64,000 nucleotides of DNA from a virus (IMGVR_UViG_3300028591_000150:1-64000); one strand, 5' to 3'. Shown: positions 13,007-17,760, counted from the first letter of the stretch. The notes: generated from the sequence alone by a model not told the origin. Numbers and translations: made by a program.

Positions 13007-13243
13007 ATGAGTATGAAACGAGCAGATTTAATTCTATTTAATGAGGAAATGATGAGGAAACTGCGAAAAGCAGGTGTACGCCCTGATGATTATAAGTACG
13101 CAGACCTATATCGCGAATATCAGAGGCTCGTCCTTACAGATAGTAGCCGCAAAGCCATTATCCTTTCATTGGCGCAAAGGTATGGTTATACTGACAGGCA
13201 GGTGTATAATATCATCAAACACATGGAAAAGAATGTCGATTAG
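13007..13243 (+). CDS. Small HTH DNA-binding protein (Mor C-terminal-like)
   Basis: LAQRYGYTDRQVYNIIK helix-turn-helix pattern. Confidence 0.7.
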   Translation: MSMKRADLILFNEEMMRKLRKAGVRPDDYKYADLYREYQRLVLTDSSRKAIILSLAQRYGYTDRQVYNIIKHMEKNVD

Positions 13244-13318: not shown

Positions 13319-13582
13319 TCAACTTCCTTTTTCGATAGGATTACCGTTCTTGTCATAGTTCTGCGTGAACTTGGCGACAAAAGCCATTCCTGCAGGTATG
13401 CCGAGCAGGTATGGATATATGTCATTCCACCATTCGTGTGTTGTGCCACCGCCAGCTGTGATAGCTGTATTCACCGCAAGTGCAGTGCCGCTGATCAATG
13501 CGCATACCCAGCAAATACGCGAGAAGAATTTCGGCATGGCGTTTCGCCATCTGGAGTGCAGTGTATTGATAAACTTCTTCAT
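13319..13582 (-). CDS. Putative holin (two TM helices)
   Basis: 87 aa, two hydrophobic segments, charged termini. Confidence 0.6.
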   Translation of the reverse strand: MKKFINTLHSRWRNAMPKFFSRICWVCALISGTALAVNTAITAGGGTTHEWWNDIYPYLLGIPAGMAFVAKFTQNYDKNGNPIEKGS

Positions 13583-13583
13583 G

Positions 13584-13919
13584 TTATTTCGAACGATTAA
13601 CGCTGTCTGTAATAGCGAGAAGGTTGTTCAGGTTCTTGACATCCGATGCCAGCGAACCGATGCTGGCACCCATCTGTCCCATTTGTTTGACAAGATCGAC
13701 CTTCATGTCGTTTAGCGTGTCAAAAATTTCATCCTGCTTCTTTGAATGAGCATCAAGGCGTTTAGTCATGTTGTCTATGATTTTTTGTTGGTTCTCGACG
13801 GTTTTATGCAGGACGGCGACATCAACGATGAGTTTTCTGATGTACCCTGCATACAGTCCTATTGCCGTGATAAATGCCCCTAAAATGGACTGCCAGATGT
13901 CTGTTACTATTGTTTCCAT
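13584..13919 (-). CDS. Membrane protein with TM plus coiled coil (holin/antiholin-like)
   Basis: N-terminal TM then heptad repeats; start METIV at 13919. Confidence 0.55.
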   Translation of the reverse strand: METIVTDIWQSILGAFITAIGLYAGYIRKLIVDVAVLHKTVENQQKIIDNMTKRLDAHSKKQDEIFDTLNDMKVDLVKQMGQMGASIGSLASDVKNLNNLLAITDSVNRSK

Positions 13920-13981: not shown

Positions 13982-14015
13982 AAAAAGCGGGCAGCCTGCA
14001 TAGCGCTGACTGCCC
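13982..14015 (-). terminator. Terminator of the Cys-rich operon
   Basis: GGGCAG/CTGCCC stem with T run on minus strand. Confidence 0.6.
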
Positions 14016-14044
14016 AAACCATTCACGGCGATATGAACGGCAGA

Positions 14045-14317
14045 TTATTTTCTCGCGAACAACTTGCTTATAAGCCAGAAGACCGATGTGGTGAAGACAT
14101 TGGCTGCGACATCACTTCCGAAAGCCTTGTACCATTGGTCTCGGTCAGCGTGCTCAACGAGATGCTTCAGGTCACGCTGATTCTGCTGTATCGCCTGCAA
14201 GATTTTATCGTTGTTCGTGTTATTTGCCGATATCATGACAAAGAGCCGCTTTTCCTCGTCACTCATCTTGTTGTAGATGCGTTCGAGAAGCATTCTGCGA
14301 GCGATGGCACGGTTCAT
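14045..14317 (-). CDS. Hypothetical protein with C-terminal hydrophobic helix (operon gene I)
   Basis: 90 aa, last gene before terminator. Confidence 0.7.
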   Translation of the reverse strand: MNRAIARRMLLERIYNKMSDEEKRLFVMISANNTNNDKILQAIQQNQRDLKHLVEHADRDQWYKAFGSDVAANVFTTSVFWLISKLFARK

Positions 14318-14356
14318 TTTTGCTGGGTTGGTACATCAAAATCGCAAGACAAACTT

Positions 14357-14863
14357 CTAAAGCCCGAAATAAGAGCGGATATCGTACACGCCATCCTTAT
14401 CCTTCAGTACGTCAAGTGCCATGGCATGAATACCGGGAACGATTTGATCTGCCTGTATCTCGTTAAGTGGTTTCTTTAGAATTTTATCGGCGATTGTCTG
14501 GGCATGGTCAGTGTACTGCTTGTTCATTTCTGCCCATAGTGCGCACCGGTTGTAGAAAGGTGCTTCGTCTGTAGGAATACCCATGCTCTGCATTGCATTG
14601 TTCCACACCTCTCGTGTCCAAGGTGCCTTTGGTTGCATCTTGGCAACGATAGCTTCTGCTTCTTTGGGCGTGAGGTACTGCTGCCAGCGGATAGATTCGA
14701 GCTTTTGGATCATCTCCTCTGCTTCTGCCGGCATCTTCTGGAGCATAGCGTCCATCATTTCGGTCATTACGTGTCCGAAAGCCTTCATGTTTTTCGGATC
14801 ACGGCTCTGAACCATGTAGTCGTAGAGCATGTCGTACTGCTCTTTCAGTTCTTGTGGGGTCAT
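14357..14863 (-). CDS. Hypothetical helical, Met-rich protein (operon gene H; DUF7841-like from memory)
   Basis: 168-aa ORF ending LKDKDGVYDIRSYF. Confidence 0.75.
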   Translation of the reverse strand: MTPQELKEQYDMLYDYMVQSRDPKNMKAFGHVMTEMMDAMLQKMPAEAEEMIQKLESIRWQQYLTPKEAEAIVAKMQPKAPWTREVWNNAMQSMGIPTDEAPFYNRCALWAEMNKQYTDHAQTIADKILKKPLNEIQADQIVPGIHAMALDVLKDKDGVYDIRSYFGL

Positions 14864-14972
14864 AATCTTATTTTCCTTTAAAGTGAAACATTAAGCCGAT
14901 TTCGACATCCTTATTTGCATAATACAAGAGGAAATAAGCAGTAATCGGCGATTTATACTTCTTGTTTTCCGC

Positions 14973-15143
14973 TCAGCATCCTGGGCAACGAGCCGTAGGG
15001 ATTCTGGGTGTGTATTGAACAGGTACACGGCGGACGGCTGGCGCCTTGCGCCTGGCCACAGAGACAGACATTGCCGGTTTTTCATTCGTTTTCGGTTCTG
15101 TCTTTGCCGCAGTCTTCTTTGCCGATGTTTTCGATGATGCCAT
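14973..15143 (-). CDS. Small basic protein ending in CPGC (operon gene G)
   Basis: AT-rich start, 56 aa, overlaps end of upstream gene. Confidence 0.5.
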   Translation of the reverse strand: MASSKTSAKKTAAKTEPKTNEKPAMSVSVARRKAPAVRRVPVQYTPRIPTARCPGC

Positions 15144-15438
15144 ATATTTTATTATATAAAGTGTCGATTGCATACATAGTTAGTTCAAGCCAGATGGCGG
15201 TGTAGGAGCAAAGGAGGGATATTGCAAGCAAGCCCGGCAGTGCAGCGGCAATGGCCATTGGAGAATAGAACGGCAGAGTGGCTATCCCGTATGCCATTAC
15301 ACTCCAACATGTCAGACATCGCGGACAGTTTATGATTGGTAAAGGGTGCCTTATAATGCGCTCGATAGTACCTATCAATCCGAGATGATTGACCGCCGTG
15401 CAGACGAAGACGATTGCTGCGATATCCCTCCAGTCCAT
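15082..15438 (-). CDS. Membrane protein with CxxCxxCW motif (DUF1360-like; operon gene F)
   Basis: CPRCLTCW followed by TM helices. Confidence 0.7.
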   Translation of the reverse strand: MDWRDIAAIVFVCTAVNHLGLIGTIERIIRHPLPIINCPRCLTCWSVMAYGIATLPFYSPMAIAAALPGLLAISLLCSYTAIWLELTMYAIDTLYNKIYGIIENIGKEDCGKDRTENE

Positions 15439-15441
15439 AGT

Positions 15442-15897
15442 TTATGCACCTGTTGCGACTGTGAAGGCAAACTCCACGTTTGCGACATTGGTGGACGGAC
15501 AGCCGCATGATACTCCAACGGGCGTTGCACTCACGCCAATAGCTGTTACAACGGGCACATCTGCTGATGGGCATGGGACACACTTTGTCACAATGACCTT
15601 CTCTGTCTGCAGACAGTTGTTGGGACAGCCATTTCCGCAGCGGTACACCTGCTGATAGGTGAGGTCACAGATGCAGCGGATGTCGCAGCAATACTGGTCT
15701 CCAACTGGTCTTGGTACACCAAGCACCTGAATGTCGAAGTTACTTGCCATGGGGAATCCGTCGGCAGTTACACACATCTGACGATTGCCGCAAGTGTAGT
15801 GCGTGCAGTCCATCAGATAACTGGTAGATGCGGGGGTTCCACCGGGGTACGGAGTCAGACTGTTGTAGTAAGTCTTTCCATTCTGATTACAATTCAT
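15442..15897 (-). CDS. Cys-rich beta protein (operon gene E)
   Basis: 15 Cys in 151 aa. Confidence 0.75.
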   Translation of the reverse strand: MNCNQNGKTYYNSLTPYPGGTPASTSYLMDCTHYTCGNRQMCVTADGFPMASNFDIQVLGVPRPVGDQYCCDIRCICDLTYQQVYRCGNGCPNNCLQTEKVIVTKCVPCPSADVPVVTAIGVSATPVGVSCGCPSTNVANVEFAFTVATGA

Positions 15898-15969
15898 AGT
15901 TTTATGTATTTATGGGTTTATTTATACGAGGACCTATTCTCTGCACCGTCCTCCTCCTGTGCGTTTGGG

Positions 15970-16272
15970 TTATTTTGTAATCTTTTCCGCATTGGGTTTT
16001 TCAGCGAACTCCTTTGGGAACAACTCAGACTCGACATTTGGCGCAAAGACTGTGGCTTCGCTGTTCTGAATAGCCTCTATCTTTTCAGCCATCTCCTGAA
16101 CAGTGCCTTGCATAGCGGCCATGTCCTCCTGCATCTTGCTTAGCACTTCCATCATTTTGTCGAGCACCTTCATATTTGAGTAAGCATGTTGCGAAGCGCA
16201 GTATGCACGCTGTGCCGGTGCGCAGTTCAGACAGTTGCCTGAGCATTGAAATTTCTGATTATTGTCTGCCAT
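15970..16272 (-). CDS. CxxxCxxC-x7-C plus coiled-coil protein (operon gene D)
   Basis: Start MADNNQKFQCSGNCLNC at 16272. Confidence 0.7.
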   Translation of the reverse strand: MADNNQKFQCSGNCLNCAPAQRAYCASQHAYSNMKVLDKMMEVLSKMQEDMAAMQGTVQEMAEKIEAIQNSEATVFAPNVESELFPKEFAEKPNAEKITK

Positions 16273-16277
16273 AGGTT

Positions 16278-16481
16278 TTATTGTTTGAAGTGATTGATGA
16301 TTTTCGATTTCACAAAGGCATTCTCGTCCCAATGCGATATGCCGTCGGCTATTTTACTTCCGGTGACGGGTATTCCGAGTGCGCCCATATCGTTGACAAA
16401 CTGGCCGAGAGCGTGTTGGGCGTGTTGTGCCTCCTGCTCGTCTTCAGCATAGATTTTGATTGTGATAGGATATACATTCAT
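16278..16481 (-). CDS. Hypothetical protein (operon gene C)
   Basis: 67 aa, tight spacing. Confidence 0.7.
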   Translation of the reverse strand: MNVYPITIKIYAEDEQEAQHAQHALGQFVNDMGALGIPVTGSKIADGISHWDENAFVKSKIINHFKQ

Positions 16482-16492
16482 AATGCCGTGAA

Positions 16493-16849
16493 TTAGTTAA
16501 TAGGTGGGAGCGGGCTATCGACGGGTGGTGTGTCTGGAACCGCTCCGCGCTTCTTGATGATGCCCTGGATAAAGTCGTAGGCCTGTGCCAATGTACCTTG
16601 GTTCTCTTTAAGCCAACCCATGATGCCGTTGACGGTTTGGGCTGTGTTCTGCTGCCATGTCAGTGGTACAGGATCATAGTCTGGCAAGTCGGGCATGTCG
16701 CCTGCAAAGAAGTCATAGAGTTCCTTCGCTTCTTTCAAGTCACCTTTTGCACAAAAGAGACATTGCAGTTTCAGACTGCTCTTACTCGTTGCTCTTATAC
16801 CTTGCTGTACCATCTGCATACGTCGTTTCTTTTTTCCATAACCAAACAT
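16493..16849 (-). CDS. Hypothetical protein (operon gene B)
   Basis: 118 aa, Pro-rich C-terminus. Confidence 0.7.
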   Translation of the reverse strand: MFGYGKKKRRMQMVQQGIRATSKSSLKLQCLFCAKGDLKEAKELYDFFAGDMPDLPDYDPVPLTWQQNTAQTVNGIMGWLKENQGTLAQAYDFIQGIIKKRGAVPDTPPVDSPLPPIN

Positions 16850-16874
16850 ATTGCCGTGAATTAGAGTTTAGGGA

Positions 16875-16915
16875 TGAAGGGCAGCGTTCTTGAAATAGAA
16901 AGTCGCCGCCCTTCA
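16875..16915 (-). terminator. Intra-operon stem-loop after gene A
   Basis: TGAAGGGCAGCG/CGCCGCCCTTCA stem, no U run. Confidence 0.55.
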
Positions 16916-16922
16916 AGGCCAT

Positions 16923-17477
16923 TTAGCCGTTGCAACCGCAGCCAGGGCAAGGACAGGGCTGTGGAGCCGAGTAGATGCTCACTGGAGTGGGGTTCAGGCT
17001 AGCGCGACCCGTCACGAAATCCTCGTAGGTTTTCGTCATCACGCTGTTCACAGCGCTCAATTCTGCTGCTTGCTGCGCAGTGAGAGTGCCTTGCTGACTG
17101 CCGCTTACGGTGTCAGTGATGGTCTGCGTGATAGTCTGGTCGCCGTTGATACGTTCTGCACGCTCTGCAGCAAACAGACTGGTCAACTGGTCGAGCTGGC
17201 GTTGGGTAGCGCCGTTCTGCAGTGCGGCAATCTCCTTAGCGGCAATAGCCACCTCCTTTGCCTGGTTAGCCTTGGCGTTGCCGTACATAGGACCGAAGAT
17301 CCATGCACCAACACCGATGGCAGTGCCGACGGTGCCGAGAACAAGTCCAGCCACACCGATGCCGCTTGTGTGGTGGCGGTTCTGCATGTAGCCCACCTTC
17401 ACCTGCTCGTAAGGTGACATGCTGCCTTCGCCTCCCATAGACTTCAAGGCCATCAAGTCTTGCATTTCAAGTGCCAT
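16923..17477 (-). CDS. Gly-rich hydrophobic segment, coiled coil and C-terminal CPCPGCGC protein (operon gene A)
   Basis: GIGVAGLVLGTVGTAIGVGAWIFG; start MALEMQD at 17477. Confidence 0.8.
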   Translation of the reverse strand: MALEMQDLMALKSMGGEGSMSPYEQVKVGYMQNRHHTSGIGVAGLVLGTVGTAIGVGAWIFGPMYGNAKANQAKEVAIAAKEIAALQNGATQRQLDQLTSLFAAERAERINGDQTITQTITDTVSGSQQGTLTAQQAAELSAVNSVMTKTYEDFVTGRASLNPTPVSIYSAPQPCPCPGCGCNG

Positions 17478-17550
17478 AGTTTTGAAGTTTTTTGATGTGA
17501 ATAAATTTGGTTTTGTTGGTCGAGCCGCAAGAATTGACGGCTTCCACAAG

Positions 17551-17585
17551 CAAAATTACCCCAAACATTGCACAAAAAACAAGAT
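17551..17585 (-). promoter_or_regulatory. Host-type promoter of the Cys-rich operon (TTG-N21-TAATTTTG)
   Basis: -7 box TAATTTTG with TTG rather than TGTCCG at the upstream position. Confidence 0.55.
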
Positions 17586-17719
17586 ACTGCCAGATACTAC
17601 ATGAAGTCCGCTTTTCAACCCGACAAAACACATTTCAATCCTTTTTATTACAATGAATTATAGTCAAAAGAAATTCAATGAAATGTGCAAATAGATGTCT
17701 TTTATTGCTATATAAACAC

Positions 17720-17760
17720 AAAAAATAGCGGCTTCCATTTCAATTTTTGAAAGCCGCTAT
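17720..17760 (-). terminator. Terminator after tape measure gene
   Basis: ATAGCGGCTT/AAGCCGCTAT stem with T run on minus. Confidence 0.75.

Follow-up and report, generated by a model that had tools for sequence, protein, structure and literature searches.

Phage lysis cassettes (lambda S/R/Rz/Rz1, T4 t/rI/rIII, the lys region of Mu and gp27-gp30 of crAss001) encode small membrane proteins, and lambda RexA/RexB and P22 SieA are systems of one or two genes. Class I viral fusion proteins have an exported ectodomain, a fusion peptide and a trimeric heptad-repeat hairpin, and the Cys-rich SPOCS proteins of the spore envelope have been described as self-assembling lattices (bioRxiv 10.64898/2026.09.03.749163). 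Here, we analysed a cassette of nine genes, referred to as A to I, in the virus IMGVR_UViG_3300028591_000150. The DNA analysed (the window) comprises the first 64 kb (positions 1-64000) of a 92.3-kb IMG/VR virus record with a CheckV completeness of 94%. A first-pass annotation of this DNA had singled out the cassette as a self-contained Cys-rich operon; beyond this, we find that the cassette is exchangeable, that a second cassette type occupies the same slot in related phages and that a tenth gene, R, belongs with it.

The cassette consists of nine co-oriented open reading frames (ORFs) on the minus strand, running from 17477 down to 14045, and five of its genes, i.e. A, D, E, F and G, have conserved cysteine motifs. 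All sequence items listed in the first-pass annotation were found, including the Cys-rich end of A, the Cys motif of D, the 15 Cys of E, NCPRCLTCW in F and CPGC in G. The operon was also said to have its own terminator, and folded terminators are present on both sides. After I, the cassette is closed by a terminator at 13982..14015 on the minus strand, in which a GC-rich stem (GGGCAGUC...GGCUGCCC) is followed by the U-tract UUUUUAUU (-20.9 kcal/mol). Upstream of the cassette, a terminator at 17719..17760 on the minus strand (13-bp stem and U6, -20.2 kcal/mol, z -3.7) is predicted to end the tape-measure operon and to insulate the cassette from it. The upstream neighbour is a 1588-aa ORF that is probably the tape-measure gene and the probable carrier of the one PhageMin_Tail match of the window, in a Pfam tally that covered 52 window ORFs by family without naming the matching members.

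Searches with E and A identified 22 IMG/VR loci, and a further search added three contigs from a genome collection, i.e. a whole 82-kb contig of Prevotella sp. tc2-28 and contigs of a Prevotellaceae and a Bacteroidales metagenome-assembled genome; thus, the host range includes Prevotella and other Bacteroidales of the rumen and gut. The gene order A-I was kept in every non-redundant related locus examined (more than 20) at identities of 30-91%, so that the proposed operon is also a unit of co-occurrence in other genomes. Among deposited phages, blastn and tblastn gave Bacteroides phage BS162P1 (OP172706.1), which infects B. salyersiae, as the only match; the homologues are its genes 00094-00101, all of which are annotated as hypothetical, and a literature search returned no paper mentioning this phage.

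The promoter ahead of A is of the host type. It has a -7 box, TAATTTTG, at 17551..17558 on the minus strand that matches the Bacteroidota consensus TAnnTTTG, and TGTCCG is absent upstream of this box. By comparison, seven operon starts of the window have TGTCCG at a distance of 21-23 nt 5' of their TAnnTTTG -7 box, three on the plus strand (7560, 11478 and 27385) and four on the minus strand (13979, 27345, 48583 and 53476), and one of these promoters lies directly past the cassette terminator, ahead of gene J. Across the window, 35 copies of TGTCCG were counted compared to 28 expected; the element is not over-represented, and its position relative to the -7 box is its distinguishing mark. This arrangement represents a phage-specific promoter architecture, in which TGTCCG is found in place of the usual TTTG at -33. 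The absence of TGTCCG from the cassette promoter, as described in the first-pass annotation, thus sets A apart from the seven other starts including that of J. The same annotation placed the synthesis of the products outside the late programme; this holds in so far as the promoter class is unlike that of structural and late operons, while the timing is read from the motifs alone.

The region between this promoter and A follows a common plan. A TAnnTTTG-type box was present 56-99 nt 5' of the A start codon in all 22 loci. In the window, the box is directly followed by an inverted repeat (17513..17549, minus strand; z -2.7 in the window), and in 17 of the 22 loci a hairpin with z < -1.5 is present at this position. 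The leader hairpins differ in sequence among the phages and were folded individually for each of the 22 loci, the sequences being too divergent for a shared consensus. The inverted repeat could either form a 5' stem-loop in the mRNA or be a DNA operator. Between the inverted repeat and the A start codon is an A-rich leader (ATTTATTCACATCAAAAAAC) with a motif, ...TTATT(A/C)ACAACACAAAAAC..., that is conserved among loci and also found ahead of the second cassette type described below. In the relative G007 (L126 14440-14475, minus strand), a perfect inverted repeat, TTGCGAT-ttt-ATCGCAA, is present near -33 of the cassette promoter and could be an operator; the same position in the window does not have this repeat.

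A homologue of R (75-97 aa) is encoded 100-400 nt 5' of A and on the same strand in about 16 of 21 loci; R is, therefore, the tenth gene of the block in most relatives. In the window, R (13010..13243, plus strand; 77 aa) is displaced to the other side of the cassette and lies on the opposite strand. R has a C-terminal helix-turn-helix; the Mor family (PF08765) was matched below the cut-off in ten of 15 homologues (best E 6.4e-4), and the comparison with the Mor structure 1rr7 gave E 0.54. We treat R as a Mor-like DNA-binding protein whose membership of the Mor family is unproven, and consider it a candidate activator of the TGTCCG promoter class.

A set of relatives was chosen by capsid alone. 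Neither A nor H is present in four of these, two with a completeness of 80% (G031 and G032) and two with 100% (G033 and G034). G034 shares 83% capsid identity with G007, a carrier of the cassette described above (type 1). In G034, the syntenic site holds an R of 76% identity and, after it, another cassette (type 2) of five to six genes. The first gene is preceded by a -7 box, a hairpin and a leader of the same kind as those before A; its product, A2, has 361 aa and contains a hydrophobic region rich in Gly, a Q/N-rich coil and the cluster CQCCC. The other products are a probable beta protein (114 aa), X (183 aa), a Gly/Tyr-rich protein (104 aa) and a probable helical protein (152 aa), and the sixth ORF, with 278 aa and a high content of Pro, Ser, His and Arg, is possibly not a gene at all. 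The three other relatives all carry A2 at 89-94% identity. Just upstream of R, G034 also has a 446-aa reverse-transcriptase-like ORF (...INFADDFIAF...; L125 9158-10498, minus strand) together with small ORFs, which is probably a diversity-generating retroelement.

In total, the reasonably complete capsid relatives each carry type 1 or type 2, and we conclude that a regulatory socket is conserved while its cargo changes. Because the same socket holds either cassette, the two types are probably functional equivalents. Moreover, they appear to be linked through intermediate forms. A2 and X are homologous to proteins of human-gut phage loci (E 1e-9 to 1e-14) that also hold a true H (hidden Markov model (HMM) E 1e-18 to 1e-21), and one of these loci, L052, additionally encodes an E-like protein ending in a shared motif, ...SNCYAINSSLTVT... 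A third arrangement is found in a crAss-like group, in which a helix-turn-helix gene is followed by an A-like protein ending in CxC...CxC, two ORFs, H and then the portal gene.

Type 1 is itself a mosaic. When the vectors of pairwise identities from 18 loci were compared, A, B and I varied together (r 0.55-0.69), as did E and F (r 0.63), compared to r 0.11-0.27 between the blocks; in addition, the form of G found in the window is present only together with the window-type E. These correlations suggest that A-B-I and E-F-G are probably two sub-complexes. E of the phage analysed here is 82-89% identical to E of L004 or L019, while the capsids are just about 25-27% identical, and parts of the cassette have thus been exchanged between distant phages.

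All nine genes described in the following are on the minus strand. A (16923..17477; 184 aa) has a conserved N-terminal tail (MALEM.DLM, PYEQ), a single hydrophobic helix of the glycine-zipper transmembrane type (residues 38-62), a coiled coil and the C-terminal end CPCPGCGCNG; across 21 loci, A is 48-88% identical, and the C-terminal C-x-C-P-(0-2)-G-C-G-C is invariant. Two further products are predicted to have membrane helices. F (15082..15438; 118 aa) is a membrane protein with three hydrophobic helices, NCPRCLTCW and an acidic C-terminal tail, and its C-P-x-C, at the start of helix 2, is invariant; I (14045..14317; 90 aa) is basic and has a conserved FGSDVAAN and a C-terminal hydrophobic helix. 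Neither a signal peptide nor a lipobox was found in the translations of A-I.

The other six products are soluble. B (16493..16849; 118 aa) is a basic, soluble protein with conserved TSK, LPD.DP and C-terminal LPPIN motifs, and C (16278..16481; 67 aa) is small, soluble and the most independently varying member of the cassette. The ATG start codons of B and C are each immediately preceded by the 12-mer TAATTCACGGCA plus AT or TT (16484-16496 and 16852-16864, minus strand), which represents a repeated translation-initiation context within the operon. D (15970..16272; 100 aa) has a conserved C-x3-C-x2-C-x7-C followed by a coiled coil. E (15442..15897; 151 aa) has 15 Cys, of which 8-9 are conserved in the alignment of homologues, and contains the pattern C-x3/4-C...C-x2-C; its AlphaFold2 model is an all-beta, eight-strand beta-sandwich (pLDDT 85, pTM 0.80); residues 89-115 gave a weak profile match to the Cys4 RanBP2-type zinc finger of Nup153 (E 0.048).

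G (14973..15143; 56 aa) is very basic (pI 11.1), overlaps the 3' end of F, ends in CPGC and has the conserved core P-x-x-(P/R)-C-P-x-C. By BLAST, the window-type G is limited to seven loci; in every locus examined, however, the 3' end of F is overlapped by an ORF in another frame that has the C-P-x-C core, and in the 14 loci without the window-type G this ORF, which also has a Lys-rich tail, is always in one and the same frame. Thus, G is real and universal. H (14357..14863; 168 aa) is soluble and a member of DUF7841 (PF25223; E 2.4e-6, 28.2 bits, above the cut-off of 25.2 bits), and this domain is present, in precomputed assignments, on all listed relatives of H. The AlphaFold2 model of H is all-helical (pLDDT 91), in agreement with the helical character noted before. 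The H family comprises about 1,587 clusters at 90% identity, all unnamed, with 304 representatives at 50% identity. Three metagenomic proteins, P0139, P0229 and P0192, join parts of the cassette in one frame and may result from deletions or from faulty assembly. In these, the first 135 aa of A are fused to the C-terminal part of H, the N terminus of D is fused to H, and H is fused to an R-like helix-turn-helix of the BS162P1 type.

The Cys motifs of A and D (four Cys each), F and G are invariant or nearly so across homologues, and the conserved motifs contain the paired C-x2-C knuckles of zinc ribbon and zinc knuckle proteins. The first-pass annotation had proposed cross-linking by disulfides or metal. 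Of the two, zinc-type Cys4 sites are consistent with the motifs, and disulfides are less likely because the products have no signal peptide or lipobox and both the cytoplasm and the rumen are reducing.

Family and structure searches assigned little else. In Pfam, PHROGs, NCBIfam and PADLOC, A-I and R matched only DUF7841 (H) in addition to coiled-coil noise, D giving nothing but such noise in Pfam and PHROGs; in PADLOC-DB 2.0, the noise amounted to E 0.005-0.02 on coiled-coil stretches and no model was matched. No recurrent family, and no DUF3794, was detected when 82 homologues of B, C, E and F were compared with Pfam at E<=1, and a literature search returned no paper mentioning DUF7841, for which no function has been described. 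Profile searches of the PDB with A, E, H and R gave no significant match. The model of E had no match at E<=0.001 when searched with Foldseek against the PDB and BFVD, and its best Z in a wide VIA-align search was 4.8 (HSP20/CS-like); similarly, Foldseek (PDB) and wide VIA-align searches with the model of H gave no meaningful neighbour, the best Z of 5.5 covering a single helix pair. Both Z values are below those reached by unrelated models. In the ESM Atlas, E had no match and A, for which the Atlas model is of low confidence (pTM 0.26), gave only unnamed viral clusters. Moreover, searches for longer or fused forms of H and E found none, two single-protein scans for distant H relatives (P0263 and P0253) were empty, and gp16, gp17, gp21 and gp27-gp31 of crAss001 had no similarity to the cassette HMMs or to the variant-cassette proteins. 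Three specific candidates were rejected: a double-glycine bacteriocin leader on A, as the GG is not conserved; a radical-SAM enzyme for D, which has just 100 aa and is mostly coiled coil; and a small terminase for H, for which there was no structural match.

On balance, we tentatively favour the interpretation that the cassette is a horizontally exchanged, self-contained unit whose products form a hetero-oligomeric complex with anchors in the cytoplasmic membrane of the host. The multi-protein, membrane-associated assembly with metal-type Cys motifs that had been proposed in the first-pass annotation is, thus, supported by inference. In this model, host RNA polymerase would transcribe the cassette outside the phage late programme, with the Mor-like gene R, the -7 box, the hairpin or inverted repeat at the transcript start and the A-rich leader making up the regulatory socket. 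A (one glycine-zipper helix), F (three helices) and I (C-terminal helix) would serve as membrane anchors, and B, C, D, E, G and H, since they have no export signal, would probably dock on the cytoplasmic face. Cys4 sites, most likely occupied by zinc, would be the joints of the complex: A, D and E, with four or more conserved Cys each, would have their own sites, and F and G, which have one C-P-x-C knuckle each and are encoded by overlapping genes, could share one site. The A-B-I and E-F-G blocks would correspond to sub-complexes.

As for the function of such a complex, it may act on the host envelope or on the state of infection, i.e. in superinfection exclusion or in membrane-level control of the infected or lysogenic cell. 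This possible role would fit a promoter class that is apparently not late, a location close to R and often to an integrase, and the exchange of whole cassettes. In this respect, a tyrosine integrase is encoded within 5 kb of the cassette in five of 11 records, and none was found in 14 of 26 records, including this genome. A role in the control of lysis timing is less probable, and is kept alive by the holin-like topologies of A and F and by occasional lysis neighbours; the remaining probability lies with some other role. More broadly, and with similar reservation as for the envelope or infection-state role, types 1 and 2 might be two forms of an unrecognised inner-membrane phage machine in which the subunits are connected by intermolecular zinc knuckles and on which a large clade of Bacteroidota phages of 50-145 kb depends. 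Such a machine could provide a new route of envelope disruption, control DNA entry or exclusion, or serve as a membrane platform for phage development.

Several observations weigh against these interpretations. The homology between type 1 and type 2 runs via transitive links, direct comparison with hhalign being weak (E 0.04-0.2), and the positive-inside rule gives no clear topology for A. E of BS162P1 has far fewer Cys, so that zinc sites in E are not universal, and a redox activity, or disulfide formation after release, is an alternative for the Cys motifs. The assignment of the cassette promoter as non-late is deduced from its sequence, and a role in exclusion or defence has no support from homology, as no PADLOC model was matched. 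Finally, the cassette often adjoins head genes or the portal gene and sometimes holin-like genes, as with J and K here; these neighbours keep two other explanations alive.

The first of these is that the cassette is an unconventional lysis or envelope-disruption cassette, in which F would be a class-I-like holin, A a class-III-holin-like or i-spanin-like protein and the soluble proteins antiholins or timing regulators. We consider this unlikely, although the topologies of A (an N-terminal tail, one helix, a long coiled coil and C-terminal Cys) and F (three helices and a charged tail) fit, and one neighbour cluster of A in the ESM Atlas contains 19% Phage_lysis (Rz) members (TM 0.42-0.47). Lysis genes are typically swapped as non-homologous cassettes at a single site, and the order of a Mor/C-like gene, small membrane proteins and head genes recalls phage Mu. 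On the other hand, known lysis systems have nothing that corresponds to the six soluble proteins, some of them Cys-rich, no lipoprotein that could act as o-spanin is encoded, and type 2 has no F. In addition, A-I matched no lysis family in PHROG, Pfam or NCBIfam, and the lysis proteins gp27-gp30 of crAss001 are among those without similarity to the cassette.

The genes around the cassette bear on the same question. J (13584-13919, minus strand; 111 aa) and K (13319-13582, minus strand; 87 aa) come next after the cassette in the window and in three relatives. J has an N-terminal helix and a coiled coil, belongs to DUF7365 and, alone among the cassette genes and this neighbour, matches holin and Rz-like spanin PHROGs; by eye, its layout resembles that of crAss001 gp28. 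K has one or two hydrophobic helices. These two probably late, lysis-related genes speak for a lysis function of the cassette next to them, but J is under a promoter of the TGTCCG class, and the cassette promoter does not have this late element. Within about 2.6 kb of the cassette, two Phage_holin_4_1 ORFs and one ORF for each of the endolysin families were counted in the flanks of relatives, and a recognised endolysin (Peptidase_M15_3 or Amidase_2) is encoded 1.2 kb from H in G010 and 3.7 kb from H in G021. These are, however, the only two of 12 records in which the distance is 5 kb or less; in the other ten, it is 24-92 kb. In this genome, the Pfam tally of the window contained no endolysin family, and the Peptidase_M15_3 endolysin (E 1.6e-18) is encoded at 81.1-81.6 kb, about 67 kb from the cassette, between genes for a small membrane protein and a lipoprotein of its own. 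This likely lysis cluster (G000:C1:80399-81750 in L031, minus strand) consists, in downstream order, of a 54-aa protein with a C-terminal hydrophobic helix, the endolysin and a 222-aa lipoprotein (...IMATGC lipobox). In total, we conclude that linkage of the cassette to lysis genes is the exception and not the rule.

The flanks of the cassette vary, and a tape-measure gene is upstream only in this phage type. The Pfam tally also listed Stealth_CR2, N6_N4_Mtase, PP-binding (acyl-carrier-like) and DNA polymerase III beta clamp domains as well as DUF6712, DUF6734 and DUF4376 in the window.

The second explanation is that the products are virion-associated, either as head-proximal accessory or decoration proteins or as internal ejection proteins that insert helices into the host membrane at infection. 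This is kept alive by adjacency to head and portal genes and by the either/or presence of the two cassette types: H is encoded directly 5' of the portal gene in the crAss-like group, the cassette is beside capsid- or portal-like genes in several relatives, and all reasonably complete relatives have one of the two types. Moreover, many decoration proteins are beta-sandwiches like E, and the profile of A weakly matched 8vxq, an N4 gp52-like ejection protein; this match is, however, not significant (E 0.77), and neither E (PDB and BFVD) nor H (PDB) has structural similarity to virion proteins. Similarly, F is a polytopic membrane protein, the promoter class is unlike that of structural operons, and the cassette is present in both tape-measure phages and crAss-like genomes and, hence, not bound to one tail type. 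We regard a virion location as rather doubtful, and as less probable than a function in lysis.

A third and least supported explanation, the coat-like stress-protection layer suggested in the first-pass annotation, i.e. a proteinaceous layer cross-linked by disulfides or metal, for which the SPOCS/DUF3794 spore-envelope proteins would be an analogy, would account for the high Cys content and for the Gly/Tyr-rich inserts in some A homologues (L020 and L026) and in the 104-aa type-2 protein, this composition being typical of cross-linked matrices, but is very improbable, as none of 22 E homologues matched the DUF3794 profile at E<=1, E has no structural neighbour in PDB/BFVD (libraries without SPOCS models), no product has an export signal, host cytoplasm and rumen are reducing and the Cys of E are largely lost in BS162P1.

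Returning to the proposed membrane-anchored complex, the distribution of the cassette indicates why a role would matter. In rumen and gut metagenomes, the H family alone amounts to about 1,600 clusters at 90% identity, and phages that carry the cassette conserve it more strongly than their capsid. For the ten genes, there is no known function or fold, and the only family is DUF7841 for H, the function of which is undescribed. Related phages have one cassette or the other under a shared regulator and promoter, which points to a function that they need and for which present models of Bacteroidota phages do not account. Assigning a role would give an annotation to thousands of so far unnamed genes of the gut and rumen viromes and might bring to light a new type of membrane complex in which cysteine-metal sites are shared. 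With BS162P1 growing on B. salyersiae, the cassette is directly accessible to experiment.

In comparison with known systems, the first-pass annotation had loosely likened A to class I viral fusion proteins; this analogy would lie in the hydrophobic Gly-rich segment followed by a coiled coil, and A has no signal peptide and is represented by a low-confidence model. Like the SPOCS/DUF3794 proteins CsxA, CsxC and CdeC, which are proposed to self-assemble, the Cys-rich products are small and beta-rich; unlike them, they match no DUF3794 profile, have no secretion route or forespore-like compartment and come from a membrane-anchored operon in a phage of Gram-negative anaerobes. The SPOCS fold is a barrel of two three-stranded sheets in an intertwined trimer; the model of E is an eight-strand beta-sandwich that had no match in the PDB and BFVD, libraries without SPOCS models. 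The cassette resembles the phage lysis cassettes in its small membrane proteins, which have one or three helices and a charged tail, in a bitopic coiled-coil protein with a C-terminal Cys, in cassette-wise exchange and in occasional holin-like or endolysin neighbours. It differs from them in that it encodes no endolysin or lipoprotein, an endolysin gene usually being tens of kb away, in that its promoter does not have the late element, in its six soluble, partly Cys-rich partners and in the absence of sequence or profile similarity. Finally, like lambda RexA/RexB and P22 SieA, the cassette has a host-type promoter and a terminator, encodes a membrane protein with cytoplasmic partners, is frequently beside integrase or regulatory genes and alternates with another cassette at one slot; by contrast to these systems, to which it has no homology, it comprises nine genes instead of one or two and is also present in genomes without an integrase.

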